IMG/VR virus record: IMGVR_UViG_3300046692_000072
Location: 1-64,000 of that record
Reading direction: 5' to 3' (one strand)
Source of the DNA: a virus
DNA: 64,000 nucleotides
This document shows positions 5,096 through 62,237 of this stretch, one piece after another; within the stretch, counting starts at the first letter, position 1, and every line of letters begins with the position of its first letter. A program made the translations under genes and the position numbers. The notes beneath the pieces are model-generated. The model was not told the DNA's origin, did not search any database, and saw only the letters and a list, made by a program, of their open reading frames with translations.

Positions 5096-5379
5096 TGGGT
5101 ATTCGAATCTCTCAGGAAAAAGAAGATCTCATTCATTCCATGAGAACCGATGGGCGGACAATCAAAGAGATTGCTGAGTACCTACAGGTATCCTTGCAAT
5201 GTGTCTCTGATCATCTTAATCCTGAGAGTCGTGCCAAGCGATATGCAGACACCTATGCTCGTACCGCTAAGGACAAGCAGGATCCAGAGAAGATGGAAAG
5301 GATCCTTGCTCGTCGTAAAGAGTACTACTATCGGATCAAGATCAAGAAGATCCTAGGAGACAATTGGAATGCCAAGTGA
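5095..5379 (+). CDS. HTH DNA-binding protein
   Basis: GRTIKEIAEYLQVSLQCVSDHL HTH pattern. Confidence 0.7.
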   Translation: MGIRISQEKEDLIHSMRTDGRTIKEIAEYLQVSLQCVSDHLNPESRAKRYADTYARTAKDKQDPEKMERILARRKEYYYRIKIKKILGDNWNAK

Positions 5380-5707
5380 TGCATGGAGACTATCCCCAAA
5401 GCAATTAGCTCAAGCAAAGAAGATGCTTGAAACCGGTATGAAACGTACCGCTATTGCTAAGTTCTTGGGGTGTAGTCACCCTACGATCTACAGGGCATTT
5501 CCTGTGGAGCAGGATAGCACACAAGAAATTATCCTCAAGCTACGAGCTCGTGTGAAGAAGCTGGAAGAGGATATCTCTGAAATTTATTCAGCTTTCAACA
5601 TGCAACAGAAGAAACCTATTGTTTCTGATGAGGAACCAAAACGTGATCGCAAGAATACACGCCGCAGTAAAATACGTCCTATTCAAGAAGGACATGCCGA
5701 TGTTTGA
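5369..5707 (+). CDS. HTH DNA-binding protein with coiled coil
   Basis: GMKRTAIAKFLGCSHPTIYRAF resolvase-type HTH. Confidence 0.7.
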   Translation: MPSDAWRLSPKQLAQAKKMLETGMKRTAIAKFLGCSHPTIYRAFPVEQDSTQEIILKLRARVKKLEEDISEIYSAFNMQQKKPIVSDEEPKRDRKNTRRSKIRPIQEGHADV

Positions 5708-6065
5708 ACTTGGGGATCTTGTAAAAAAGAAGTCAGGTTCTTTCTGGCGAGGCAAGGTAGTTGGGTATTACTCAACTGAGCAAACCCCTATCGGGTATTG
5801 CGTCCAGCTTGTCATTGCTGATCCAAGGGAAGACGATAACCTTATGCCAGTTCAGATCTATCCTGAATCCGCACTGGAACCTGCTCTATCAGCACGAAAC
5901 CATCCCTATGAGAACACTGATCTCTACGTTCGCTTTCTTGCAGAGAATGGTAACGATACTGAAATCTGGTCCTTCATCACTTACTGGACCTACGGGGATT
6001 GGGATGATCTCGATAAGAATTGGCCTGAGTGGAAAAAGTTCGTAGAGAAAAACGGGGGCAAATAG
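5700..6065 (+). CDS. dfrB: type II (R67/DfrB-like) dihydrofolate reductase domain with C-terminal extension
   Basis: FELGDLVKKKSGSFWRGKVVGYYSTEQTPIGY...VQIYPESALE aligns with R67 [32 protein letters not shown]...VQIYPVAALE. Confidence 0.75.
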   Translation: MFELGDLVKKKSGSFWRGKVVGYYSTEQTPIGYCVQLVIADPREDDNLMPVQIYPESALEPALSARNHPYENTDLYVRFLAENGNDTEIWSFITYWTYGDWDDLDKNWPEWKKFVEKNGGK

Positions 6066-6079
6066 CCCCCATCTTTTTT
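6048..6079. terminator. bidirectional terminator between convergent blocks
   Basis: AAAAAC-GGGGGC-AAATA-GCCCCC-ATCTTTTTT. Confidence 0.7.
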
Positions 6080-9000
6080 AGAAAACTAGATTAAGATATG
6101 GATTAAGGAATGGGGCACGTAGTCCCATCCCTGGTCCAATAGAGTTACCTAAGTTGCCATCCTCAAGAACAGTAAAGAAGTTGTCTGTCATTGGGGTACC
6201 AATACTACCAATAATGGGTAGCGAAGGTGTGCTCATGAACAGCAACGCTCTCAATGGATTTCTACGGATCGTGCGAAGAGCAATCTTCACAGACCTGATC
6301 TTGAAATTCCAGAACCAGATAGCACCAATGCTTTCCAGGTAATTCCTGGTTCTACCGGAGAGTCTGTTGTAGTTCACAAACTCTTCAGAGACATTCGCTA
6401 CTGCCTCAGTGTGAGGCATCGTCTTCTTCAGATGATCGTAGAGAATACCCTTTGCCAAGAAGTCACCATACTGAGTGGCACGAGCAAGAGCTTTATATGC
6501 AACAGTGTCTTTGGTGATCATTGCATAGCGAGCCACGGTCTGAGCAGGACCAGGGATCGGGATATTCTTGACCAAGTTCTCAACGTAATCAACGTACTTA
6601 CCCTTGGAGATCGCAAGATCTTCCTGAGTAGGTCCACCTTCACTGATGGCACTGAATTGACCTTCTTCAATCAGCTTCCAGATCGAGAGACGCTTATTGC
6701 TGTCCTCCAACTGGTTCCATTCAGTCTGAAGCTTACGCTCAGCACGTACATCCTTACGAACCTGTGCAGCTCTCAAGTCTGCCTCCAGTTCAATCTGGCG
6801 ATCCTTGTTCTGAATGTACTTGTTGACCTCAATGGTCTTGGTTGCCATGCCACGGATGATATCCGTAACCGGCACACCTGCATGCAGAAGCTGGTACATG
6901 TTCGAGAGGATGTTCGATACTGGAACGATCACGGACTTCACCACGATCAGTTCCTTGGCAGCAGCAACACCCTTCTGAACAACCTCCTCACCTTTGACGA
7001 GGTACTTATAGGCATTGTTACCATCACCAGCGATATCGAATATCGTAGTAGCAATCTTCCTGAACCGTTTTACGGTAGACTCCGACCAACGTGTATTCCC
7101 AGTCCATGCATCACCTACAGATGCCTGACGGGAACCAAACGAGTCGTTGAGCATGTCCTTACGGACCCACAACTCTTTCCCCCCAAATTCCCGTTGGATC
7201 TCTGCCCTGACCTCAGGAGAGATGAGCTTAGCAGCATCCTGGATAATTTTATCCTTGGAAGCAAAGAAATCCACGAACTGATTTTTATCTTCAGGACGTG
7301 CATCGTTATAAATAGTCGCAAGGTTCTTGATCAGTTCTGTATTGAACTGACGAGCAAAATGCTCTTCAACCTGACGACCCTTCCAAGCACCAATCATCTC
7401 AGAGAGATTACGATTGGGGTTAAGACGTTCAAGCTGCGCTGGATGAGCGTGGCGCTCGTAAGCAACCACGTCACCTAGTGCGTCATAGATGGGGAGGAGG
7501 GCTTCGAATCCACCGTTGCTTCTACGCCGTCTAGTAATTCGGGCGACCTCAGCAGCATCACGGATAACGCCAGCATTGACAGTCCCGACAGTTTGCCCTG
7601 TGACCGGATCAACGCCGGAAGCAGTGCTATGGACAGTTTGGAAGATGCCTTGATTGTAGGCTGCTTTACCGGCGACAGGTGCATAGTAGTATCCTCTGCT
7701 AACCCCAGAACCCTCAGACTTAGAACCTTCGTAATCCGCTACACGGGTGAACCCCAGCGGAAGCAGTTTGGTTCCATAGTGATCGTTAATGATAGTTAGC
7801 TGGTGACCATTTTCGTTTTCGAGGGGAATGAAACCCTTATAATGATTTGCTTTCGCAACGTCATTGGTCACCCGAGCCATTTCATCTTTACGCTGCCCAG
7901 TCAGATATGCAAGGGTAAATTCCATGCCTTCTGGTTCCTTTTGAACCAAGGAGGACAGGGTGCTCATGATCTGGCGATCCAGCTTATCCAACGCAGTAAG
8001 GGTAACCAATTGATCAATCACATCAATCAGCTCCTGAGGAGCACGGGACTTGCGACCACCCTCACCGAGCAGGTTCGCTATAGCATGAGCATTGCGGAGC
8101 TGGTTGGCACTAGCCTCCCCCGTATTCATGAATTTAGCGAGCTCAGCGATCTTAAGCAGGAGCTTCTGTTCGTTGATGGGATCCAACGTGCGGAGACGGA
8201 GTTGCAGTTTCTGGAGTTCCTGTGCAACCGCAGCAGGGGATTCCAAAACCTCCAAAGTTTTGTTAACGCCCAGAGACTCTACAAGAGACGCCAGATCGGT
8301 TTTCGCAAGTCCATTATACAGATGCTCCCATTCCTGATCAGAGAGTTTAACCGTAAAGTGCCTAGCAATTTTAGCAGGCAACTTCTCACGGAACTGCTGA
8401 CGAGACTGTTGGACGACCGTCCGAACCTTTGTGATCATATCCCAAACGGAGGCATTACTCTGGAGTCTTCCAGACATTTCGGAAAAGAATTCCCGAAGCG
8501 TAGTCATACCTTCTTGCCTATTCAGTATCCCAGTTACGCTCTCGGCAATAGACCCAGCTACATTATCATTGATAATGCCTAGAGACATACGAGACATCGT
8601 AGCAGCAAAGCTTGCCCACTTGTTAGATGGGTTAGATGCCACATAGGTCTTGAGTTTCTTATCCCACTTGTCAGTGAGAGACTGGGTATTCTCACGGAGC
8701 ATCTGCTCAAAGCCAGAGATCTTATTACCCACTTGGTTCAGAATGAAGAACTTGTCTTCAGCTTCTTGAGCCGCAAGGACTTGAACCAGGGAGTTAATAG
8801 CTTGAGCTACGTTCTCACCCTTTTGACCACTAACAGACTTAGTGAAGTTATCAATTACATTAAGACCAGCCTTCATGAGAACATCATCAAACTTAGACTC
8901 TTGCTTATCCGCAATGTTCTTAGGGAGACTGAATTTCTTCAGGACTCCCTGAAGTCTCTCACTAGTTACAGCGAGAGCCAAGAAAGTAGGCATCAATGCT

Positions 9001-12000
9001 GATCTACCCTTAGCATCAACCCTATTGATGTAGACACCATGCAGAGCATTGAAACGTTGTTCTGCCATATAATGGTCATTAGGGTTTGTAGACTTAGGAT
9101 CATCCATGAGATCCTCAACAACCAAGGACTTCATCACATGACTGTACAGAGTATCAATGCCAGCCAACGCTGTATGATCAAGTTTATCGGCAACACCGAG
9201 GGCAGCAACGAGCGACTGGAATACAGAACGCTGTTGCTGAGTCATATTCCATCCGTGATTCTGGAAAGAGTCCGCCAGTTCGATGACACGTTTAACATAG
9301 ACATCAGCCTCGGCCTTGGTTACTGCATCATCACTATTCAGAGCTACAGTCACTTTAGCGAAGAATCTATTATCAAGATTAGTCAACCAGTCACTGCTAC
9401 CGAACTGGGCACTCTGGTAAAGACGAGTGTCTCCGACAGTGCTGTTATTCAATGGGGTAGAAAGCAGTACCCTCGTGTTAAAACGGAGGTTGCTCCACAG
9501 GTCATCCCCAACCTTTGGTCCACCATTGCCAAACAGCAATCTACGAACAGCAGCAAGGGCATCCTTAGCAAGCTTATACAGTGGGTTAAGAACCTTGGTC
9601 TCGGCAGCAACAGTAGCTAGGTTCTTATTCGTAAGGACCCATGCCATGAATTCATTAAGGGCTTCAGCCTTACGACCTTGATTGAGATAACCATGAACCG
9701 TAGCATCCGCCATCTGACGCGCAGCGATTACAGGGGCAGACTCTGCACTGTAATTAGTCGCTACCCATTCTCCCATCAAGCCTTCGAGTCGGACAATAGC
9801 TTCGCGGTCCTCAATGGAAAGGTCTACCCCATCATAGAAACTTTGAACCTTGGCGAACGTACCGGCATGAAGGAGTTCATGAGCCAGGGTCTCACTACTA
9901 GGGTTAGCAATGTAGATAGTTTTAGTTGCAAAATCGATCTTACCCAATCCTGCTTCAGAAGGGATTCGGTTAGGATTGTTCTCAAGTTCATAAGTACCAA
10001 GAGAAGCGATATCTCCTACAACTATTTTCCAGTCGTTAGAAATATTCTTCGCTGCAAAGCGAATAATCTCAGCGTGGTTTGGATCCAAGCCAGGGATGTT
10101 TGGGAGATCCTTGACCGAGAGAATACGATTACCCAGATCGTCTACGACACCTACCCCACTGAGATCCATGGGGTCAGTAAGCACTGGGGACACCTTATCC
10201 CTGATGGTGTTCCCGCTTACGATCTTGTTCATAGCTTCGGCTATAGCTGGGAAGCCTTGAGCGGCATCCTCAATTACAGACGTTCCAGTCTGTGAGTACG
10301 GGGCAGCAGCAGAAGCCATGTGATCCACGGAGAGAGGCATCTTAGCGATTGCCTCCTTACGTGCTGCAATGGATTCAGCAGCACGAGTGAGAGACTTAGA
10401 AAGACTATCAGCAAAAATAGGAATGAGACTGTTATCACTCAGTTCAAGAGCTTCAGCAATTTTAGCTTTAGTCTTTCCATCGTGCCAGATCTTGGTAAGT
10501 TCTTCTGCCTTGGTAGAGAAAGGATCTTGACGAAGGAATGCCCTGAAAGCATTAGCGATATCCTCAACAGGATTAGCCTGCCAAGCATCGTAGACTGCCT
10601 TGTTAATCAGTTCGGAGTACTCCTTGATCTTAGATGCAGGGAGCTCGATACCGTCGAAGACAGCAAGGATGTTATCCATATTGGTATTGGCAAAGATGTT
10701 CTGAACCATCTGACCATCACCAGTACCAATGACCATGTAAGGGATACCGCCTACACCCGCCTCAGACGGGGAGTAGACAAAGGCAGGACTTTCCAATTTA
10801 CCTGAAAGGGTTTTAGAGAAAGTACGTGAACCAACATCACCACGCTCAGTACCGCCAACGAAGAACTCCTGAGTTCCAGTGTCAATGACAGGATGGAATT
10901 GAGCAGTGTCTTTATAGATCTTGTTCAGCTCAGCCTGACTTAGGAAGTTGTGCTTATTGCCTTTTTCCTTGAGAGCAAGGCGAGCTTCTACCTGACCATC
11001 GAACTTGTCTTTGGCAACCAGGGACATAATCTGAATGGCGGTTTGAACCATGGAGGTAACCTCCATAGATGGTCCCATCATTTCACGAATAGAAGCATCC
11101 AACTGCCTAACGAACATTGCTTTAACATTGTTTTTCAGGTTCAGTAGTTCACCTTTGGTGAACGTAAATTCAGAAGGATCAACATTCCTGTCTTTGACAG
11201 TTTTGTCATTCTTATCCTTAATGGAGTAGTCTTTGACCTCCATGTTTCCGTCTTTGTTAATGACAACAGCTTTGCTGATCAGCGTATTAAGATCCCTGCT
11301 AAACTGTTCCCCATCAACACCAAAGACCGAACCAAGGGAACTATAGTTACCAGTTCCCACGCTGCTCAGACCTTCGTAGATTGAGTCAACAAGAGCACTA
11401 GCAACCTTCCCCGCAATACCCTTAATACCGGAACCATAGACCGTAATCGTCAATGGGTTCTTAGCAATACCACGCTTCAGCGTGAGCATTCCCGTATCAC
11501 TATCAAAGCTCAGATCACTTGTGAGAGCATTCATGGTACGGAGCAGGCTATCCATCATTGGTTCAACAGGAGTACCAACAATAGACTTACGGAAGTCAGC
11601 AATCTTACCTACCAATTTAGTGGTAGCAGTCTGATAAAGGTCACCACCTTGATCTGGTCGAGCATACTCATCAGCAAGGGTCTTACCCGTCTCGCCAATG
11701 AACAGACCACCACGAGCCATGTTTTGAACCCATGCAGCGGTAAACTCACCAGCAGTGAAGTTCATGATAGCATTGATAGGACCGTCAGTCTTACCGTCAG
11801 CTTCCAGAGAAAGGTGATGAGTAAACTCAGAAGCACTAGGATCCTTCTGGTAATCATGCCAAGCAATGAGAGCATGAATCGCCTTCATGGAAATATCAGT
11901 ACCGAGACTATTCTTAAGAATAGTAGGATCGATCTTGGTTGCCCCAGAGCGCCATGCTGAGATGTGATCAGCAGCAACCTTGAACTTGCCAGCAAGATCC

Positions 12001-22936: not shown

Positions 22937-24145
22937 TCAGATTGGTGCAACAGTCTTGATCAGACCGAGACGTTCAGGACGCTTAACAAGCAGACCGTAG
23001 TACCACTTGATCGAGCTGAAGCCAGTCTCACCGTAAGGATCGTTACGGTCAGCAGTGGCATTACCTGGCATCTTGGTGAGAACGGAGAACTTAACCGTCT
23101 TACCATCCGTCTGGAAGCCAATGGTAACGAACGAATCATCACCAATAACCAGCATCGGGAACACGTCGAAGTGTGCCGTACCGCCAACTACCGTAGTACG
23201 GTAACCGTTGTCCGAGGTGACAACAGCAGCACCAGCACCTTCCCAAGACAGCATTTCCGGGACCACGATGAGACGGAACTCATCGACCGAACCGATTTCG
23301 CCGTTCATGATCGTACCGGCATCGCCATACTGTTGAACAGGAACGAATGCTGGGTTGTTGAACAGATCGACCATCTGACGAACAACCGGGATCAGCTCGG
23401 AACCAATGAACATGACACGACCAGCAGAGATGGTTTTCGTGTCGATATTACGGGAACCAGTGATGATCTTGGTCTGCTTCGGAGTACGGTTGTCCGTGAG
23501 GGTCTGGCTCAGACGCATGAGCAGACGATACGAAACAACATCTGGAGTCGTCTCACCCGAGAGCTCATCCGTGTCAGTTGCCTGACCAGAATAAAGCAGA
23601 ACACCACCTTCAGCAGCAGCAAGCAGATCCTTCTGGAGGACAGCTTCCGTAAGCTGAACGGCACCGTTCATCAGTTCACGAGACAGGTGATCCATGAGAC
23701 CATCGTCCGAATCGAAGTCCAGAGATTCCTGAGTAAATTCAGTGAAGAAACCGAACTTCAGGATCGAACCTTCGCGGTCGATACGAGTGAAACCAACGCG
23801 GTTCACACGACCACCGTTTTCAGTCAGAAGCGGGAGCTTCGTAGAGATCGTACCAACGTCCTTGCTCGAACCATAAAGGTTACCAGCAGAGATGGTTACA
23901 CCGTTAGCATCGATACCCTGGTCATTGATGTTACGGTCATCGAGCAGAGGAACGTATTCATAGACCTTGATGGTCTTACCGAAGTTCTTCGGCATACCAA
24001 TCGTGGACGACAGAGGCATGAAGTACTGGTCTTTGCGCGACTGAATAATAGCGCTCTTGAGCCAGAAGAAGGTACGCATCTGATCGGACGAAGCACCGTC
24101 AATAGACGACTTCTGACCATCAATAGGAGCGTTATAATTAAGCAT
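22937..24145 (-). CDS. major capsid protein (N4 gp56)
   Basis: 402 aa; [45 protein letters not shown]. Confidence 0.95.
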
Positions 24146-31092: not shown

Positions 31093-32682
31093 TTACGAAT
31101 CGTATTGGAAGTAGATGTCACCATTAACACCAGTACCGTTATCTGGAGCAGCAGTACCTGAATAGATATCCGCAGTGGCGATAGTACCAATGTCAGCAGG
31201 TTGAACGGCAGTATCCGCAAGAGATCCCTGTGCACTCGATGCCTTAGCACCAAGAGCGTCAGCAATGGCACCAGCAGCAACCATGTCAGCTTCAGACTTG
31301 TTCGCTACGTTATTGAGACCAACATCAGTCTTATCCAAAGTAACAGCACCTACCTTGCCTGCTACAGAGAACACAGACTCAGTGTTCTTGACCTTATCCC
31401 AACCAGTACCGTTAGAAACGATCCAGTCAGATACAGCCCACTCGTTAATACCAGAGATGTTAGTGGTACCTGCCGTGCCTACTTTATAGTACCAACCTTT
31501 GTTGCTGGCAGAAGCTGAAGGGATAGCAGGCGTGTTCGCCGTAGCATCCCAATCACCCTGATACTGCAAAGTACCCTTGACGCTCGCAGGAAGATTAACA
31601 AGTGGAACCAGGATGGAAGCATCCAAAGGTGCCACACCGTTTGCTACGTTCTTCTGAGAGACAGAGATCTTCGCATCGATAGCAGCTTGGAGACCAGCAA
31701 CCGTGCTGATTGCCTGAGTTCCCGTATGGTTCGCTCGTGCAAGGAGAGTAGCATTGGAGGAGTTGGCAGTTGCACCCGTTGCAATACCAGCAAGCTTGGT
31801 ACGCTCAACGTCAGTGAGAATCTTGGCAACAGAGGTTTCCACCATGTTACCCATGGAGAAAGCGTCACCGTTTTTGCCGGTTGGGTCATAAGTACCAACG
31901 AGCATATCACCGGTACCTGCACCCGCAGCACCACGAACGTTCACGCCATCTGCGATATTCGAGCTGAAACCGGTAGAGGTAACGTAGACATTGATCGCAG
32001 GTTTAGCCCCAGAACCACCCGTCCAGTCTACAATCTTTTGAACCAGAGCAGAACCATTAGCAACAAGTGCAAAGACAGGAGTCCATGCATTGTTACCAGT
32101 TGGGAGCGTGAGATCCAGAACCTGATCTGGGGTAGCACCACTGATGTTAGCAGCAGCAGTTAAACCAGAGGAGACCGTACCAATGGTCAGCGTATTCGAT
32201 GGAGCTCGCGGCATACCAAAGGTAAGACGCTTCAGGTTAGGGTCATACGATACCGTAGGATCCTCACCAGCATTCAGGATGTTACCCAGTACATTGATAC
32301 TGGTAAGCAGGTTATCTCTGATGGTGATGGATTCATTCTTGGCAGCGACCGCAGCAGCAGAGTCAGCAGCAGTTTGAGTTGCTGCATTAACAATGATCTG
32401 CAAGTCATCGTAGATATTGAGAATCTGCTCAACGTTATCAGCAACAGCAGCGACTGCTTCCAGGTTCTCAGCAAGCTGCTCGATAGAGTCGAGCTTGGGA
32501 GCAATAGCAATAATAGCAGCGATGTTATCACCAACTGCCTGCACTGCTTCAATGCCACCCTGAACAGAAACAATGAATGACATGTTCTGGGCAACGTACT
32601 TAACAACATCATACGATGTCATCAGTACTTTCTCTACGATAAGCTCAGGAGTACCTGTAGCGAATGGGGGCAAACCTGCCAT
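31093..32682 (-). CDS. tail fibre protein
   Basis: N4-type N-terminus (YDVVKYVAQNM), ERTKLAGIATGATAN, RANHTGTQAISTVAGLQ, YQGDWDATANTP, SVAGKVGAVTL fibre motifs. Confidence 0.85.
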   Translation of the reverse strand: MAGLPPFATGTPELIVEKVLMTSYDVVKYVAQNMSFIVSVQGGIEAVQAVGDNIAAIIAIAPKLDSIEQLAENLEAVAAVADNVEQILNIYDDLQIIVNAATQTAADSAAAVAAKNESITIRDNLLTSINVLGNILNAGEDPTVSYDPNLKRLTFGMPRAPSNTLTIGTVSSGLTAAANISGATPDQVLDLTLPTGNNAWTPVFALVANGSALVQKIVDWTGGSGAKPAINVYVTSTGFSSNIADGVNVRGAAGAGTGDMLVGTYDPTGKNGDAFSMGNMVETSVAKILTDVERTKLAGIATGATANSSNATLLARANHTGTQAISTVAGLQAAIDAKISVSQKNVANGVAPLDASILVPLVNLPASVKGTLQYQGDWDATANTPAIPSASASNKGWYYKVGTAGTTNISGINEWAVSDWIVSNGTGWDKVKNTESVFSVAGKVGAVTLDKTDVGLNNVANKSEADMVAAGAIADALGAKASSAQGSLADTAVQPADIGTIATADIYSGTAAPDNGTGVNGDIYFQYDS

Positions 32683-53473: not shown

Positions 53474-53661
53474 AATGACTGTAGCTGAACTCATTGAGGA
53501 GCTTAAGAAGCTCCCTCAGGATGCAATAGTCCTCCAGTACGGTGGTGACGAGTTCTATCACATAGCTGAAGGTGTAGAGCTTCAGAAAACAAATAGAGAT
53601 ATCGACTGGGATGGGAAAGTAACAGGCCCATTTGTCACCCTATTCTAACAGGAGAAATACC

Positions 53662-54870
53662 ATGCAACTCTTCAGCGGTGTCGAGTACTTGCAGATTGAT
53701 ATTGCCAACAACTTCGGACTCGACAAAAAGGATTGGGACATTCGTCTCAACTGGTTCAAGGACAATGAAGATAAACTTCTCTCACTGGTTCAGCAAGCTG
53801 AAGAGCCCGCATTGTATTATGCTGGCGTCAAAGCCTGGAATGACCATCTTGCAGGAAAGAATTGTCACTATCCGATCTCACTCGACGCAACCTCGTCTGG
53901 ACTACAAATCTTGGCTTGCCTCACAGGCGATAGGAAAGCGTCTCAGATATGCAACGTGGTTGATACCGGAAAGCGAGAAGACGCTTATACGGCGATCTAT
54001 GAGGCGATGCTCTCCTGCACAGGAGGCGAAAACAAGATCGAGCGTAAGCAGACCAAGCAGGCGGTAATGACCTCGCTCTACGGGTCAGAAGCTGTGCCTA
54101 AGTCTGTGTTTGGTGAGGGAGCTCTCTTAGCTCTCTTTGAACAAACCATGGACGATCAAGCCCCTGGTGCATGGGAACTTAACAAGCAGATGCTTGCTCT
54201 GTGGAATCCAGAAGCCTATGATTATCATTGGGTTATGCCTGATAACTTCAATGTTCACATTAAGGTTATGCAGATGACTTCTGAAAATGTCCATTTCCTG
54301 GACAAGCCTTATGAAGTCAGCTATGCCGTCAATGCTCCTATGGAGCGAGGTCGGTCTCTCGGTGCTAACATGACGCATTCCATTGATGGAATGATCGTGC
54401 GAGAGATGACACGTCGCTGCATGTACAACCTCGAAAAGGTTCTATACATCAGAGACATCCTCTGCGATCCCTCAACCAAAACCTTCACACATGGAGCCAA
54501 GGATGAGAATGCGAAAATGGTCATGGCGCTTTGGAGTCACTATCAGGCGTCTGGGTTCCTTAGTGCTAGGATCCTTGACCATCTTACTCTGGATACTATT
54601 CCTCTTGTCGATAGGATGGTTATTCTGGACCTTATTCAATCACTTCCTCGGAGACCCTTTCAGGTCATCGCGGTACATGATTGTTTCAGATGCCTACCTA
54701 ACTACGGAAATGATCTCAGAAAACAGTACAATATACTGCTCTCTGGAATCGCCAAATCCCGACTACTCTCCCACCTGCTTACGCAGATCACCGGGAGAAA
54801 GATGGAAGTTGGCAAGCTCGACCATGGGCTCTGGGTTGATGTGCTCAATACCAACTACGCCCTCTCCTAA
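53662..54870 (+). CDS. RNA polymerase II subunit 2 (N4 gp16)
   Basis: motif A LDATSSGLQ, motif B RKQTKQAVMTSLYGS, motif C VHDCF. Confidence 0.94.
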   Translation: MQLFSGVEYLQIDIANNFGLDKKDWDIRLNWFKDNEDKLLSLVQQAEEPALYYAGVKAWNDHLAGKNCHYPISLDATSSGLQILACLTGDRKASQICNVVDTGKREDAYTAIYEAMLSCTGGENKIERKQTKQAVMTSLYGSEAVPKSVFGEGALLALFEQTMDDQAPGAWELNKQMLALWNPEAYDYHWVMPDNFNVHIKVMQMTSENVHFLDKPYEVSYAVNAPMERGRSLGANMTHSIDGMIVREMTRRCMYNLEKVLYIRDILCDPSTKTFTHGAKDENAKMVMALWSHYQASGFLSARILDHLTLDTIPLVDRMVILDLIQSLPRRPFQVIAVHDCFRCLPNYGNDLRKQYNILLSGIAKSRLLSHLLTQITGRKMEVGKLDHGLWVDVLNTNYALS

Positions 54871-54896
54871 ACAGTGCTAACTCAGTGCTTACACAG

Positions 54897-54928
54897 TAAC
54901 CCCTCCCTAGCGGAGGGGTTATTTTTTT
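54897..54928 (+). terminator. intrinsic terminator
   Basis: TAACCCCTCC-CTAGC-GGAGGGGTTA-TTTTTTT. Confidence 0.8.
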
Positions 54929-54970: not shown

Positions 54971-57900
54971 ATGAGCATTTTGAGAGTATTTTATAATCCT
55001 GGAACCAAGAGTGTGAGGATTAGGGAACAAGGTCTTGCTGATCTTGCTGCTCCATATGTACTCGCGGGATCTTTCGAACATGGTGGTAGCAATGATCCAG
55101 AAGGCTGGGATCATAACCACGTCATGTATCACCATGTCAGAGATGCTCTGTACAAGGTTGGTGTTCAGGACATGAACTCGGTCCATATTCTGTCCATTCT
55201 CTATGTTGGACAGAAGGCTATCACCTATAGTGATAGTGGTGAGATCGCTGAGAACACTCCTGTTGGTACTATTGTATCGACACTCTCTGTCCTCAATGGC
55301 TCTGGATCCTACATCTTCACAGAACTGTCAGATACTGATGGCAAGTTCGTAATTGAAGGTTCCAACATCAAGCTTGCTGCTGCATTGGATTATGAGACTA
55401 AGACTTCTCATACTATCGATGTGCAGGCTGATGGTGTCGGTGGTCCTCTTACTCGTTCGCATGTATTTAACGTAAGCAACGAGAATGACCCAATTATCAA
55501 CATCTCTGCTGTCAACATTGTTGAGTCTGCCACTGTAGGTACTACGGTAGGCGTTCTCTCTATTACCAATGGTTCAGGTTCTTATACCTTCACCAAGATT
55601 GCTGACCCAGATAGCAAGTTCGTTATCTCTGGTAACAACCTCAATCTGGCTGCTGCTATCGACTATGAGACCAAAGCTTTCCACAGCGTCACTGTTCAAG
55701 CTGCTGGTACTGGTGGACCGGTCACGAGAACGATCAACATCAACGTCAGCAATGCTGTTGAAGGTACGCTTGCACCTACGACTGCCTCTATCACTGATGA
55801 GATTGCTGATGGCGCTACCGTCTTTACCGTTACCGGTTTTGACGTTGGAGCCAATGAGGTAATCTCCAGCATTTCGCCAAATGATGGTCGATTCGCTATT
55901 GCCTCTGGTAACAGGATCGTCAAGGGTCTCAGCGCTGTGTCGGCAGGTACTGTAGCTCTTACGCTTACGATGTCTACTGGTCGTACCCTTACGAACAACA
56001 TCACCATCACGACTACCTCGCTCCCTGACTACACTTTCCAAGCAGAAACCGATGCACTTCAAGTGTCTCGTACTGCTGCTGGTATCCCCATGACTCGTCG
56101 TCAGAAGCTTGCTTTTGACCGTATGGTGGTACGTGTTAAGGCTGCTGGTGTTAGCGTTGCTGATTGGGCTGCTCTTTATGTCCCATCTACACCTACGGAA
56201 GTACAAGCTCGTGTTAACCAGATTCACCCTGGAACCAACGATCTGGTACCCGTAACTACCGTTCCCACTTACACTGCCAACGATAAGTGGAGTGCTTTCG
56301 GTACGCCTAAATACAATACCGGTATTGGTCTCCAGAGCTTTGCTCAGGGGCAGTTCACCATCTTCTTCTACTCACGCACCACTGCGGGTGCCTCGGGTGG
56401 TGACTTTGGTGCTCAGACCGCTGGTGGTGATGGTATTGCTGCTAACACCCGTGACGCTTCGAACAAGTTCAATGCCCGTCTTCAGGGTACAAACTATGCA
56501 TCAGTAGGTACTACCTTCACCCCTGGTCAGGGTATGTACTCCATCCGTCCTAACAAGCTGGATACCTTTGGTATCAAGCGTGAAGACACCTCCACTACCT
56601 ATGTTGCTCCAGCAACCAATCCAACAATCCACCTTGGTGGTATTAATGGTGGTGCCTCAGCAGGCAAGGATTGCGGTCTCTTTGCAATCTTCAAGGTCAC
56701 CTTGACTGATGCTCAGAATCGGGAAGTCAGTGCTGCTCTGCTCGACTACTACTACAAAGTTCGCTTTGGTATGGTCGATTACTACGAAGCTGGTAAAGCC
56801 CCAACCACTGCCGATTACGATGTCGTGGTCTATGGTGCTAGCTGGACTGCTGTCTGTGCTGCTTATGCTGCCAAGCAGGAAGGCAAGAGCGTCTGCATCG
56901 TCTGTGATGAGCACGCTAAGACGGACTGGGATATCGGTGGTATGCCTGCATCCGGTCTTGCCTATGTGGACTGCTACAACTACACGGCAATGAAGGGTCT
57001 CTATCGAGATCTGACCCAGTGGGTAAACACCACGATCATCAACCGTGCAGATACGAACAACCAAGCAGGTAACTCTGTTGAAAGCTGGCAGTTCTGCCAA
57101 GCTGTTCGTCGTATGCTAGATCCAGCACGAACCAATGGTACTCTGATCTTTGGTCAGGATATCCCTGTCTACTTCTCTACCGGTATTCAGTCCATTACCT
57201 CGGTAGGTACGAAAGACACTGCTCTCCATACTAAGGATGGCAGAACCTTTACCGGTAAGGTCTTTGTATCCGCTGACTATGATGGCGAATACAACCACAT
57301 GTCCACTGGTATTCCTACCATCACTGGTATCGAAGCTGCTGGATCTGGTTCTGAAGCCAACAACGGTTACAAGGGCTCCGGCTCCATGAGCAAGCCCTAT
57401 GGTTCAGACATCAGCCCTTACATCACTGAAGGTAACTCTGGATCTGGTCTTCTCCCTGATATTCAGGGTGAAATGCCTCTTCCTGGTTTGACCATTGGTA
57501 ATGCCATCACTGCTCTTGAGAGCATGAACTATCGTCTCGCCATGACGACTGATCCTGCTCGTGTGGTTCCAGTTACCACTATGGATCCACATCGTAACTA
57601 TAATGCTCTACGTTATGAGACTGCCGGTCGTGCCTATGTCCTCAATCCAAGTGCACAGATTAGCAACCTGTCCGGTACCCAAACTCTGCTGCAATTTGCA
57701 GTCGGTGGCACATCGAACAAGATCGATGTGAACAACGGTTCGGGCGGTCTGTCTACTGACCTTCCTGGTTCTGGTTATCGTTATGCCACGGCAGCGGATT
57801 CTGCTGCTCGTAAGGCAGTTATCGATGACCTCCGGGATTATCAGCTTGGTTGGTTCTGGTGGCACAACAACTCGGGGGATTCTCGTATTCCTTCCTCGTT

Positions 57901-58471
57901 GCGTACCTCCATGCTAGCTCTTGGACTTGATGCAGGTACTTTCCTGGATCCAGGTCCAGATGGTCTCCTGTTCTGGCCTAACCGTCCGTATCAGCGTGAT
58001 CCTGTCTGGCGCCTCAAAAACACTGGTTACGTCTCGACTGCACAGGATTATTGCAAGACGGATGGTACGTCGCTTCGGTCTGACAAGACCATTGCTGCAA
58101 CCTCCTATGACTGCGATAAGCATCCTGAATGGAAGGTAGCCTCTGGCGGACTTCTCTACACTCAGGGTTCTGTTCCAGGTGGTCTCCAAGCTGGTGTTGA
58201 CCGTATGGCTCCAATTCCTTTGGAAGAGATTGTCCCTGACGTTGGTGTCAAGACGAACGTTATCGTTCCTTGGGCTTCGTCCTGCACGATTCTCTGCTGG
58301 TACATGAGCCGTCTTGAGCCAACTGGTGGTCATAAGGGTGAAGCAGCAGGCGTCATTGCCTCTATGGCAATTGACGGAAACATCGAAGTGCAGAACGTAG
58401 ACTACACTTCCCTGCGTACTAAGTTGCTGGCAAGAGATGTGAACCACCCTTACCTGCCACAGGTCGCATAA
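54971..58471 (+). CDS. multidomain protein: putative capsid-anchor domain, two cadherin-like repeats, beta-rich domain(s) and FAD-dependent oxidoreductase-fold domain
   Basis: I.EN..VGT.V..LS...KF.I.G..L.LAAALDYETK twice; DYDVVVYGA..AAYAA..GKSV, GGMPASGL, RLEP..GEAAG.IA.MA. Confidence 0.8.
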   Translation: MSILRVFYNPGTKSVRIREQGLADLAAPYVLAGSFEHGGSNDPEGWDHNHVMYHHVRDALYKVGVQDMNSVHILSILYVGQKAITYSDSGEIAENTPVGTIVSTLSVLNGSGSYIFTELSDTDGKFVIEGSNIKLAAALDYETKTSHTIDVQADGVGGPLTRSHVFNVSNENDPIINISAVNIVESATVGTTVGVLSITNGSGSYTFTKIADPDSKFVISGNNLNLAAAIDYETKAFHSVTVQAAGTGGPVTRTININVSNAVEGTLAPTTASITDEIADGATVFTVTGFDVGANEVISSISPNDGRFAIASGNRIVKGLSAVSAGTVALTLTMSTGRTLTNNITITTTSLPDYTFQAETDALQVSRTAAGIPMTRRQKLAFDRMVVRVKAAGVSVADWAALYVPSTPTEVQARVNQIHPGTNDLVPVTTVPTYTANDKWSAFGTPKYNTGIGLQSFAQGQFTIFFYSRTTAGASGGDFGAQTAGGDGIAANTRDASNKFNARLQGTNYASVGTTFTPGQGMYSIRPNKLDTFGIKREDTSTTYVAPATNPTIHLGGINGGASAGKDCGLFAIFKVTLTDAQNREVSAALLDYYYKVRFGMVDYYEAGKAPTTADYDVVVYGASWTAVCAAYAAKQEGKSVCIVCDEHAKTDWDIGGMPASGLAYVDCYNYTAMKGLYRDLTQWVNTTIINRADTNNQAGNSVESWQFCQAVRRMLDPARTNGTLIFGQDIPVYFSTGIQSITSVGTKDTALHTKDGRTFTGKVFVSADYDGEYNHMSTGIPTITGIEAAGSGSEANNGYKGSGSMSKPYGSDISPYITEGNSGSGLLPDIQGEMPLPGLTIGNAITALESMNYRLAMTTDPARVVPVTTMDPHRNYNALRYETAGRAYVLNPSAQISNLSGTQTLLQFAVGGTSNKIDVNNGSGGLSTDLPGSGYRYATAADSAARKAVIDDLRDYQLGWFWWHNNSGDSRIPSSLRTSMLALGLDAGTFLDPGPDGLLFWPNRPYQRDPVWRLKNTGYVSTAQDYCKTDGTSLRSDKTIAATSYDCDKHPEWKVASGGLLYTQGSVPGGLQAGVDRMAPIPLEEIVPDVGVKTNVIVPWASSCTILCWYMSRLEPTGGHKGEAAGVIASMAIDGNIEVQNVDYTSLRTKLLARDVNHPYLPQVA

Positions 58472-58503
58472 CACTTTAAACCAAAGTGTTTTCAATATAT
58501 AAG

Positions 58504-58531
58504 GAGCGGGCTAGCCCCGCTCTTTTCTTTT
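58504..58531 (+). terminator. intrinsic terminator
   Basis: GAGCGGG-CTAGC-CCCGCTC-TTTTCTTTT. Confidence 0.75.
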
Positions 58532-58543
58532 ATGAGGATCCTT

Positions 58544-59050
58544 ATGACTACTTATCAATGTGCCTTTAAGGCAACCGGTAACACTGCTGTTGTTACCATG
58601 CAGCGTGCTGCTGACACTCTTCCTGCTGGTGCAACTGATATCGGTGACGTTATTCATGACGTAGAGCCTGACAATCTGTCTGGTCAGACGACTTTCAATG
58701 ACTCTCACGTCCTTTATCAGCATGTTCAGGAACTCTGCTACAAGCATGGTTGGACGGACATGGCAAACGTCACCATCAATTGGGATGTTGTCGGTGTTGA
58801 GATTACCAATGGTGCAACTGGCACAGTTACTGCTGCCGCTGGTGCTAACCATACTCTACAGCTTTATGCTCGTACTCTTCCTGAGGAAGCTACGTCTGAG
58901 GATATCGTCTGGACGAGTGGTACCCCTGCCAAGGCAACTGTCAACTCGACCGGTCTTGTGACTGGTGTTGCTGCTGGTAGCACTGTTATCACTGCGAAAT
59001 CTAGTGTAGATAATGCTGCACTCGATACGATCACGATTACTGTTACGTAA
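58544..59050 (+). CDS. Ig-like (Big_2) capsid decoration protein, N4 gp17-like
   Basis: IVWTSGTPAKATVNSTGLVTGVAAGSTVITAKS; position after RNAP II as for N4 gp17. Confidence 0.8.
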   Translation: MTTYQCAFKATGNTAVVTMQRAADTLPAGATDIGDVIHDVEPDNLSGQTTFNDSHVLYQHVQELCYKHGWTDMANVTINWDVVGVEITNGATGTVTAAAGANHTLQLYARTLPEEATSEDIVWTSGTPAKATVNSTGLVTGVAAGSTVITAKSSVDNAALDTITITVT

Positions 59051-59061
59051 GGATTTTTATC

Positions 59062-59451
59062 ATGGATGCTGACAAGATGGCTCAGGATTTCCTTATGTGG
59101 AATTCCCTCAAGTTGGCTCCATATGATCCCAAAATTAATCACCCCCAGGATGTAGGTCTTGGGGGTCCATCCACCGAGTACACCGCTACGGTAGATACTC
59201 CTCAAGGGACGTTTAAAAACATCCCTCAGCTTTGGTGGCAGCGCAATGGTAAACCTCTCCTCGTCCCTGAGGAGACCGCTAGAGGGCTTGCTAGCCTCAC
59301 AGAGCGGGTTACCGGTAGATCCTTCCCAGAATACACGACACCTGATGAAGCCGACCTAGAGGCTTCTGAGAGATCCAAGGCAGGTGGTGCTGAAAAGCAA
59401 TCCTTGATGGATTATGCGGATGAAATCCGCAAATACGGACCCAGGTACTAA
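59062..59451 (+). CDS. hypothetical protein
   Basis: AAGGA RBS. Confidence 0.65.
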   Translation: MDADKMAQDFLMWNSLKLAPYDPKINHPQDVGLGGPSTEYTATVDTPQGTFKNIPQLWWQRNGKPLLVPEETARGLASLTERVTGRSFPEYTTPDEADLEASERSKAGGAEKQSLMDYADEIRKYGPRY

Positions 59452-59986: not shown

Positions 59987-61027
59987 ATGAGTAACGCGAA
60001 TGCAGTCAGTCCCTTGAGGGCTATGCCTCTTATTAAAATGACCCTGAAGGCTCGTAAGGTTCCTTACCTGAAGTCCTCACCAGGGATTGGTAAGTCCGCT
60101 ATGGCAGCAGAGCTTGCCCAGGAATTCAATCTTAAGCTGATCGACCATCGTATCAGCACCTCTGCTCCGACCGATCTGACAGGCTTGCCTGAGATCCAGA
60201 ATGGAAGGTCTAGCTTTAATCCCTTCGACTTCTTCCCCATTAAGGGGAAAGATGAACCAGTGAAGGGTACGAATGGGTGGCTCCTGTTCCTGGATGAGTT
60301 CAACTCTGGCTCCAAAGCAGTTCTGGCAGCAGCGTACAAGCTGGTGCTGGATAAGAAGGTTGGTCAGTATGACCTCCATCCTAATGTAGCAGTCATGTGT
60401 GCGGGTAACCGTGACACAGACCGTGCTATCACCACCAACATCGGTACTGCTATGCAGTCTCGATTGACCACCTATAATATTGAACTCAACAATGATGAGT
60501 TCATCAACCATGTCATGATCAAACAAAAATGGGATGATCGTGTCATCGCCTATCTGTCCTCAGAACCAAACAAGATCAATGACTTCCGTCCTGATCACTC
60601 TGATGACACCTTTTGCTGCCCGCGTACCTGGGACAGTGTACAGGAACAGATCAAGGGTGAGAAAATCACTCGTGCACATCTGCCCCTGATTGGTGGTACT
60701 ATCACCTCTGGCGTAGCTGCCGACTTCCTGACCTTCCTTGATGTCTATCAGGATATGCCGAAATTTGAGGACGTTCTTCGTGAACCAAACTCATACCCGC
60801 TTCCGACAAATCCTCAGCTCAAGTGGGCAGTAGTTTCCAGCTTCTCCCAGAAGACAAACAAGAAGAATTTCAATCAGATCGCTACCTATATTGGTCGATT
60901 TGATATGACCTTCCAGGTTCTGTTCTTCCGTATGACACTTCCCAGCAACCCTGAACTGCGTGAGCTTCCCGAGTTCGGACCCATCGCAGTCAAATTTGCA
61001 AAGTATATGTTCGATGCAGTTAGCTGA
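59987..61027 (+). CDS. MoxR-like AAA+ ATPase (N4 gp24)
   Basis: SSPGIGKS, LFLDEFN, CAGNR, PRTW. Confidence 0.9.
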   Translation: MSNANAVSPLRAMPLIKMTLKARKVPYLKSSPGIGKSAMAAELAQEFNLKLIDHRISTSAPTDLTGLPEIQNGRSSFNPFDFFPIKGKDEPVKGTNGWLLFLDEFNSGSKAVLAAAYKLVLDKKVGQYDLHPNVAVMCAGNRDTDRAITTNIGTAMQSRLTTYNIELNNDEFINHVMIKQKWDDRVIAYLSSEPNKINDFRPDHSDDTFCCPRTWDSVQEQIKGEKITRAHLPLIGGTITSGVAADFLTFLDVYQDMPKFEDVLREPNSYPLPTNPQLKWAVVSSFSQKTNKKNFNQIATYIGRFDMTFQVLFFRMTLPSNPELRELPEFGPIAVKFAKYMFDAVS

Positions 61028-62237
61028 AGCTATTCCTGAAGAGGAAGACTACGAGAAACTTAATCGTCTCCTCGACCACGTAAAACGTGACATCTTCCTT
61101 TCCAAGAATAGTAAGGGAGAAGTCAAGAGGGACTTCGCTACCTTCTTTGGCTCACTCATGAGTGGGCTTACATACATTTGGGACTCCAAGAAAAAGACTG
61201 CTGCTACCAACGGTATCAACATGTTCTGGAGCCCCAAATTCTTCCTGTCACTTCCGCATGGAACACGTCTCACAATCTTCATGCATGAGCTGTGGCACGT
61301 TGCTCGCTTGGATACGATCTACCATTACGGTAAGGATCCAAGGAGATGGAATGCAGCTTGTGACATCTGGATCAATAATACCCTTGATGATCAGGGGTAT
61401 TCTTGGGAAGGTATTCCCTTCAAGTTCTGGCTCGATCATTCCTATGATGGTTGGACTGCTGAAGACATCTATGATGATCTGAAGAAGAAGGACGATGAAG
61501 CTTGGGAAGAGTTCTGCAAGGAACATGGCATTGATCCTAATGATCCATCCACCTGGGTAGATCTCATTGAACCAAGTGACGAAGAGGATCTTGACTCCGG
61601 TCAGGTCTCTGAGGAACAGCTCAAGGTAATCGCCATTGTCCAGACTGCTGCTCAGGCAGCAAAGATGGCAGGTGAAGGTTCACCGGATGCTACTCTAGAC
61701 ACCATCAAACAGTTTCTTACTCCTAAGATAGCTTGGGAGAAGGAAATGATTAACATGATGGATGCTCTTATCGAAGAAGACTACTCATGGAACTGTAGGG
61801 ATCGTCGTTACAACGACATATACCTTCCTTGGTTCGAAGAGATGGAAGGTCTTGAAGACCTCTTCTACGGTATAGATGTTTCAGGATCTATGCTCGACCC
61901 CATGGTTGTGCGTTGTACCTCTGAAGTCAAATATATCAAAGAACGCTTCAGACCTAAGACAGTCACACTCTTCCAGTTTGATGAGATCGTTCAACGTATC
62001 GATACCTGGACTGATGAGGATGAGTTCAAAGAAGTCATCGTACAGGGTCGTGGTGGTACATCACTCCATCTGGTCGCTGACTACCTAGAAAAACATAAAC
62101 CCCGTGCTGCTATCATCTTTAGCGACCTATACTGCGACAAGATGAGGAAAGTACCTGGGGTGGAAATCATTTGGGTAGTTCTCAATAACCCTCATGCCAC
62201 TGTTAACCAGGGCAGGATGCTACACATTAGGGAGTGA
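61014..62237 (+). CDS. metallopeptidase-vWA protein (N4 gp25)
   Basis: TAATNG, HELWH, WNAACD..IN, DVSGSM MIDAS, GRGGT. Confidence 0.9.
   Translation: MQLAEAIPEEEDYEKLNRLLDHVKRDIFLSKNSKGEVKRDFATFFGSLMSGLTYIWDSKKKTAATNGINMFWSPKFFLSLPHGTRLTIFMHELWHVARLDTIYHYGKDPRRWNAACDIWINNTLDDQGYSWEGIPFKFWLDHSYDGWTAEDIYDDLKKKDDEAWEEFCKEHGIDPNDPSTWVDLIEPSDEEDLDSGQVSEEQLKVIAIVQTAAQAAKMAGEGSPDATLDTIKQFLTPKIAWEKEMINMMDALIEEDYSWNCRDRRYNDIYLPWFEEMEGLEDLFYGIDVSGSMLDPMVVRCTSEVKYIKERFRPKTVTLFQFDEIVQRIDTWTDEDEFKEVIVQGRGGTSLHLVADYLEKHKPRAAIIFSDLYCDKMRKVPGVEIIWVVLNNPHATVNQGRMLHIRE

Follow-up and report, generated by a model that had tools for sequence, protein, structure and literature searches.

A paralogue of the gp17-type head-decoration protein in a Rhizobium N4-like phage that probably carries an enzyme-like domain on the capsid

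We analysed a 64,000-nucleotide stretch of viral DNA (IMG/VR record IMGVR_UViG_3300046692_000072, positions 1 to 64,000; the whole stretch is called the window), in which two neighbouring plus-strand genes encode proteins with a common N-terminal domain. The larger protein, P0001 (1166 amino acids; 54971..58471), consists of this anchor domain followed by a stalk, a lectin domain and a flavoprotein-fold domain, and the smaller, P0002, is a decoration protein of the type of gp17 of coliphage N4. Both open reading frames, 54971-58471 and 58532-59050, are present as an initial annotation of the window had described them. Sequence comparison identifies P0001 as a paralogue of the phage's own gp17-type head-decoration protein, and P0001 probably displays an enzyme on the phage head, a kind of display not described for natural phages. 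That P0001 is displayed on the capsid we regard as likely. For the fuller claim, that P0001 displays a glycan-processing enzyme on the capsid, we put the odds at slightly better than even.

The window is from a Rhizobium N4-like phage (Schitoviridae). It contains a 3368-amino-acid virion RNA polymerase open reading frame together with genes for RNAP1 and RNAP2, an N4 gp56-family capsid protein, the portal and terminase. The closest relatives in GenBank are the Rhizobium N4-like phages RHph_Y38, RHEph22/24, RHph_N38, RHph_Y2_6 and RHph_I1_6, with a DNA identity of ~76-79% in the flanking genes only.

The initial annotation had claimed that the first ~75 residues of P0001 (1-75; 54971..55195) match the N-terminal domain of the next gene product. 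By BLASTP the two proteins share 28 residues (P0001 46-73 and P0002 55-82; 43% identity, E 8e-5), a match that is weak on its own, and both match phrog_38673, a PHROG without known function. Separate profiles were built from proteins encoded at the gp17 locus of N4, a Klebsiella phage, Burkholderia HN05, Stenotrophomonas C121, Sinorhizobium ort11, Erwinia UCB24 and two Rhizobium phages. One profile, made from nine gp17-type N-terminal domains and no member of the large type, matched P0001 residues 1-73 with 49.9 bits (E 1.5e-12 at Z=1e5) and two P0001 orthologues with 47-60 bits, while the top unrelated open reading frame scored 4.8 bits. N4 gp17 was recovered at 44 bits by a profile built without N4. 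In the reverse direction, a profile of three large-type N-terminal domains matched ort11 with 83 bits, N4 gp17 with 30.5 bits and P0002 with 30.3 bits. Since these cross-validated profiles agree, the match between the N-terminal domains of P0001 and P0002 is settled as claimed.

Wider searches led to the same family. When residues 1-85 of P0001 were compared by tblastn with 50,697 phage records, 60 were matched, all of 69-78 kb, which is the typical N4-like size, and the genes underlying the matches are mostly annotated as decoration or immunoglobulin-like (Ig) structural proteins. A profile of 104 sequences, headed by P0001 1-85, matched the decoration protein of Shigella phage Moo19 (9d7z_J, E 2.6e-23, aligned from residue 1) and N4 gp17 (9e99_J, E 2.2e-17). 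An AlphaFold 2 model of the same residues (predicted local distance difference test score, pLDDT, 83) was compared with the PDB by Foldseek, and the top five matches were the gp17 chains of N4 (9e99, 9lbz) and Moo19 (9d7z), with probability 1.0 and template modelling scores of 0.60-0.64; the next match had E > 2.6. Structural alignment by VIA placed 9d7z_J first (Z 8.9; root mean square deviation, rmsd, 2.9 Å over 75 residues, 28% identity), followed at Z 3.5 by the next best chain. The near-invariant residues of the family, G33, H37, H50, Y61 and M68, are all kept in P0001, whose domain shares 31-51% identity with most of the family and is nearer to the consensus than that of P0002. By profile and predicted fold, the domain shared by P0001 and P0002 is DI of the N4 gp17 decoration-protein family.

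P0002 and the arrangement of the genes agree with this assignment. The open reading frame of P0002 as called (58532-59050) has 172 codons, and the likely true start is the second ATG at 58544, which is preceded by a GAGGA Shine-Dalgarno sequence and gives 168 residues (58544..59050), the length of the same protein in a database record. P0002 consists of DI and one Ig domain, found as Big_2 at residues 107-157 (E 2e-10), as the initial annotation had it, and its full-length tblastn matches are genes of N4-like phages named 'capsid decorating protein' or 'Hoc-like head decoration'. In N4 the order is gp16 (RNAP2), gp17, ..., gp24 (ATPase), gp25. In the window the RNAP2 gene (homologue of N4 gp16; 53632..54870, plus strand; phrog_2051, E 1.3e-160; Pfam RNA_pol) is followed by the genes for P0001 and P0002 and, further on, by those for an ATPase (59987-61027) and a vWA/metallopeptidase-like protein (60960-62237). 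This synteny bears out the earlier placement of the P0002 gene at the gp17 locus, where the P0001 gene lies as well. A decoration gene also lies directly 3' of RNAP2 in Burkholderia, Stenotrophomonas and Sinorhizobium N4-like phages.

Behind DI, the initial annotation had described two cadherin repeats, further beta-rich domains and an FAD-oxidoreductase-fold domain, all of which were found. The cadherin repeats (residues 89-175 and 178-262; 55235..55756) match Pfam PF00028 at 89-154 (32 bits; gathering cut-off 28.8), and an alignment with EC1-2 of cadherin-23 covers residues 92-246 and hence two repeats. Predicted calcium-site motifs are present in both (ENTP at 94, LDYE at 139, NENDP at the junction of repeats 1 and 2, ESAT at 185 and IDYE at 230), and unrelated jumbo phages of Rhizobium encode cadherin proteins with ~40% identity to the repeats. 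The third beta-rich domain (residues 263-349; 55757..56017) is conserved with the C-terminus of the 331-residue protein EVB68_042 of phage RHph_Y2_6, with a tblastn match extending to residue 338.

The next part of P0001, residues 350-600 (56018..56770), comprises two helices and a predicted ConA-like lectin jelly-roll, and opens the module that other phages encode as a separate protein. A model of residues 350-1166 was made with AlphaFold 2 from a 20-sequence alignment (pLDDT 82; predicted template modelling score 0.89). In this model the jelly-roll spans residues ~387-600, and VIA aligned the region with carbohydrate-binding domain 4 of the arabinanase AbnA (5ho0/5hon; Z 16.2, rmsd 2.9-3.0 Å over 183-185 residues) and with the lectin domain of T. 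rangeli sialidase (Z 14.8). Look-alikes in the ESM Atlas are viral proteins of ~255 residues and a Laminin_G_3 cluster. The lectin region, as modelled, has the ConA-like/LamG carbohydrate-binding jelly-roll fold. No Beta_helix Pfam match was obtained for P0001, and residues 350-1166 are modelled as a jelly-roll followed by an alpha/beta flavoprotein fold, unlike the beta-helix protein EVB68_043 of RHph_Y2_6.

The remainder, residues 606-1166 (56786..58468), has a two-dinucleotide-binding flavoprotein fold of the PF12831 family. Pfam FAD_oxidored (PF12831) matches residues 617-1152 over profile positions 1-416 with 94.6 bits (cut-off 27), and NCBIfam gave weak matches to the Rossmann start alone. 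VIA aligned the modelled domain with AhpF (Z 16.5), urocanate reductase (Z 16.3) and fumarate reductase (Z 15.0), over ~180-230 of its ~560 residues. Cellular homologues bear signal peptides, one of them twin-arginine. On a plasmid of Chondrinema litorale (locus 5143-10587) three homologues of the domain are encoded in tandem directly behind SusC/SusD, and they are the only enzyme-like genes in that locus; in Sphingobium one homologue lies behind a set of sigma factor, FecR and TonB-dependent receptor genes. The fusion to a lectin, the SusC/SusD and TonB neighbours, the signal peptides and the beta-helix protein encoded in the same slot of sister phages (see below) together suggest that the enzyme-like domain acts on bacterial surface glycans. 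The initial annotation had offered redox chemistry or root mucilage as alternatives to exopolysaccharide; neither gained specific support, and the context points instead to bacterial surface glycans. Membership of the Paenibacillus alginolyticus xanthan lyase in PF12831 was considered and dropped as unsupported, because a review lists that lyase as PL8. On an Agrobacterium-type plasmid of Rhizobium sp. AB2/73, a single homologue (8911-10659) lies between a VirA-like sensor kinase gene and virB1.

In the 2.45 Å structure of the N4 capsid, each quasi-3-fold axis is occupied by DI of gp17, whose DII rests on a P-domain and whose DIII is flexible in the solvent (PMC11768535). A role of DI as the capsid anchor of P0001 thus has good support from homology to a domain with a known place on the shell. 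The presumed docking surface in the present phage is the major capsid protein of the N4 gp56 family (22937..24145, minus strand; phrog_1357, E 2e-134). It matches the capsid proteins of N4 (9e99_A, full length) and Moo19 (9d7z_A) with 677 and 676 bits, respectively, and is 77-78% identical to those of Klebsiella N4-like phages. Because the score against the N4 protein and the identity to the Klebsiella proteins are this high, the presumed docking surface is conserved. Such conservation of a capsid protein across host classes is unusually strong for phages.

On the reading that we favour, DI of P0001 would dock at the quasi-3-fold junctions of the T=9 capsid in the manner of N4 gp17 DI, and a few copies of P0001 would share the 180 DI sites of each capsid with the small Ig form, P0002. 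The cadherin stalk, stiffened by calcium, would take the place of the usual Ig domain and keep the lectin and flavoprotein-fold domains away from the head. The lectin-flavoprotein module would then most likely bind a host surface polysaccharide (exopolysaccharide, capsular polysaccharide or lipopolysaccharide) and chemically process the same polymer.

Several observations weigh against this reading, and there are three alternatives to it. In N4, DII of gp17 also contacts the capsid; at that position P0001 has a cadherin repeat, not a Big_2-type domain, so that its DI alone, with a 120-kDa cargo to hold, may bind weakly. The flavoprotein domain lacks the canonical GxGxxG; its Rossmann start reads VVVYGASWTA, with GASWTA at the corresponding place. 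Literature searches on PF12831/FAD_oxidored returned no characterised glycan-active member, and no member of the subfamily with a measured activity was found. P0001 could accordingly be a capsid-bound adhesin without catalysis, in which the lectin and a perhaps degenerate flavoprotein-fold domain only bind glycans of the host or the environment, as has been proposed for T4 Hoc. Such a role would suit the limited alignment of the domain to known flavoenzymes, which covers about a third of its length, as well as the generally adhesive or stabilising nature of decoration proteins (PMC7602432), natural examples of which serve, so far as is known, as cements or weak adhesins. However, the variant motif is not peculiar to P0001: the form YGxT/SxxG/A occurs throughout the PF12831 subfamily, cellular members included, and is conserved together with the acidic residue that ends beta-2 (IVCDE in P0001) and the GGM..GL motif. 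The twin-arginine signal among the cellular homologues is typical of cofactor-loaded exported enzymes, and the Chondrinema homologues, as the sole enzyme-like genes beside SusC/SusD, also speak for catalysis. We consider a purely adhesive P0001 unlikely. Of the capsid display proposed in the initial annotation, the part that concerns the anchor stands, in that the shared domain is gp17 DI, and the part that makes the cargo an active enzyme is more tentative, the dinucleotide motif GASWTA being non-canonical.

The two further alternatives concern the place of P0001 rather than its chemistry. The helices and lectin region resemble the N-terminal region of a tailspike chain of cyanopodophage Pan3 (9vyh_q, Z 14.6), to which attachment to the tail would fit too, and a beta-helix protein is encoded at the P0001 locus in sister phages. 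P0001 might be a tail-attached receptor-binding protein, a tailspike analogue whose DI-like domain docks on the tail or neck and not on the capsid shell. Against this, DI is known solely as a capsid-surface domain (PDB 9e99, 9d7z, 9lbz), the late operon already has an appendage/tail protein (31093-32682), and the P0001 gene is at the gp17 locus, outside the tail module; attachment to the tail therefore seems quite improbable. We give equally little weight to the idea that P0001 is no stable part of the virion, being a free enzyme released at lysis or acting on the infected cell, with DI as a leftover of duplication: its gene does lie in the early/middle region, bracketed by hairpins like a moron cassette, and free homologues without DI do exist, but the near-invariant DI residues are all kept, in a domain closer to the consensus than that of P0002, and N4 gp17, which is a virion protein, is encoded in the equivalent region (PMC11768535).

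The lectin and PF12831 domains of P0001 also occur together elsewhere. Proteins of 818-857 residues encoded in Rhizobium genomes are 63-83% identical to P0001 residues 350-1166, and free homologues of ~840 residues in the unrelated Rhizobium phages RHph_N3_19, RHph_Y55 and RHph_I72 are 27-30% identical to the same residues over their full length. The genes for these phage homologues sit within head-morphogenesis clusters. Free proteins of this kind are collinear with P0001 and have a GASWTA-type motif in common with it, and they differ from it in having neither the DI anchor nor the cadherin stalk. As they start almost exactly where the match in P0001 starts, a whole protein was fused to the anchor and stalk. 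Sequence comparison thus identifies the lectin-PF12831 module as a cassette shared by several unrelated Rhizobium phages. The C-terminal module of P0001 has a GC content of 0.51, and 0.44-0.48 at third codon positions, inside the range of the phage's own genes, and so gives no sign of recent transfer. Searches for related loci with single sequences gave no matches in viral contigs and genome contigs.

The slot between RNAP2 and the small Ig form is variable among the relatives. In RHph_N38, I1_6, RHEph22/24 and Y38 it holds genes for a 678-residue DI protein and then a 792-residue protein, and in RHph_Y2_6 and RHEph16 for a 331-residue protein of DI and cadherin repeats and then a 1206-residue beta-helix protein annotated as pectin lyase. 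In RHph_Y2_6 (6994-7002) these last two, EVB68_042 and EVB68_043, share a reading frame, with no more than TAA and one codon between them, an arrangement that may reflect chance, a recent split or a readthrough site. We make no claim of readthrough, since a shared frame is expected by chance in one case in three.

When a two-sequence DI profile was searched against 1.84 billion representatives, 189 clusters were matched at E <= 1e-3. Most consist of DI and one Ig domain (155-190 residues) or of DI alone (~77 residues). The latter (P0062, P0052, P0076 and P0140) are of constant length and recur across several metagenomic contigs, which reach 43 kb; this suggests that they represent a minimal one-domain decoration protein. 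Larger fusions lie on metagenomic contigs of N4-like size (71-77 kb for the three that follow): DI with seven Big_2 domains (P0043, 76.6 kb), DI with a GDSL esterase (P0114, 75.6 kb) and DI with an L1-like esterase (P0078, 71 kb). Several further DI proteins of 440-1003 residues have no family match. Since DI-only proteins recur and DI is also found fused to Ig domains and esterases, DI, on the evidence of its sequence distribution, behaves as an autonomous module. The modular display system envisaged in the initial annotation is backed by this range of cargoes, namely one to seven Ig domains, SGNH/GDSL esterases and unassigned cargoes of 450-900 residues. A broader generalisation is that Schitoviridae use gp17 DI as a general plug-in scaffold for glycan-active enzymes on the capsid shell and not on the tail, and that the PF12831 subfamily is an uncharacterised polysaccharide-processing class shared with bacterial polysaccharide-utilisation loci; this we put forward as a speculative possibility, rather doubtful as it stands. 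Two distinct DI proteins without a Pfam family, P0087 (692 residues) and P0126 (527 residues), are encoded on one 28,347-bp contig, and may mark another phage with two large DI paralogues. P0035, a 4103-residue adhesin of the type IX secretion system with eight weak DI-like stretches, was left out of the family. The stretches of this Bacteroidota SprB/CHU_C adhesin match the second half of the DI profile and overlap odd DUF2282 matches, and the match may be spurious or reveal a distant cellular relative of the DI fold.

P0001 may be compared with known decoration proteins. N4 gp17 (32 kDa, PDB 9E99) and the Moo19 decoration protein (9D7Z) have a homologous DI, the same gene position after RNAP2 and, as here, a conserved capsid protein to bind. 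P0001 differs from both in its 1166 residues, with cadherin repeats, a lectin and a flavoprotein-fold domain, and the phage keeps a separate small DI and Ig protein, P0002. T4 Hoc, like P0001, combines a capsid-binding domain with a projecting string of Ig-superfamily domains and is thought to mediate adhesion to glycans. Unlike P0001, it has a C-terminal anchor, unrelated to DI and located at hexamer centres, and is not known to bear an enzyme-like domain (see also PMC7602432). None of the decoration proteins listed in a 2020 review is catalytic (PMC7602432), and our literature searches found no enzyme-bearing gp17 paralogue, in line with the earlier statement that no described head-displayed flavoenzyme was known.

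Modification of glycans by virion-borne enzymes has precedents in Schitoviridae. The gp63.1 tailspike of the N4-like phage G7C is an SGNH O-antigen deacetylase, and the Pectobacterium phage Possum is reported to have a polysaccharide-deacetylating fibre (PMC9569702). The metagenomic DI-SGNH fusions P0114 and P0078 carry an enzyme of the SGNH class too. The G7C and Possum enzymes attach to the tail through tail adaptor domains, whereas the attachment domain of P0001 is that of the capsid decoration protein.

If P0001 does equip the head with an enzyme, at as many as 180 sites, the view of how heads cross exopolysaccharide or biofilm would change, the head becoming an active and not a passive surface. 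DI would then also be a natural and structurally defined display scaffold, on a capsid protein conserved between Rhizobium and Klebsiella N4-like phages. P0001 moreover offers a practicable way to study what a widespread and uncharacterised group of secreted proteins with a flavoprotein fold does, because the lectin-PF12831 module recurs in unrelated Rhizobium phages and has homologues in a SusC/SusD locus.

Signals for expression surround the P0001 gene. An AGGAAG Shine-Dalgarno sequence lies 5' of its start, and just upstream is a terminator-like hairpin (54895..54923, plus strand) with a 12-bp stem containing six GC pairs, followed by the T-run TTTTTGTT. A second such hairpin (58501..58525, plus strand; 10-bp stem, six GC pairs, then TCTTTT) separates the P0001 and P0002 genes. 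It ends ~18 nucleotides before the P0002 start, so that expression of P0002 would need readthrough or a promoter of its own. Flanked by two strong terminator-like hairpins, the P0001 gene resembles an insulated moron cassette. Downstream of P0002, an open reading frame of 129 codons (59062-59451, plus strand) is kept in the Rhizobium relatives and has a weak partial match to a giant 'endolysin' PHROG (E 2e-5).

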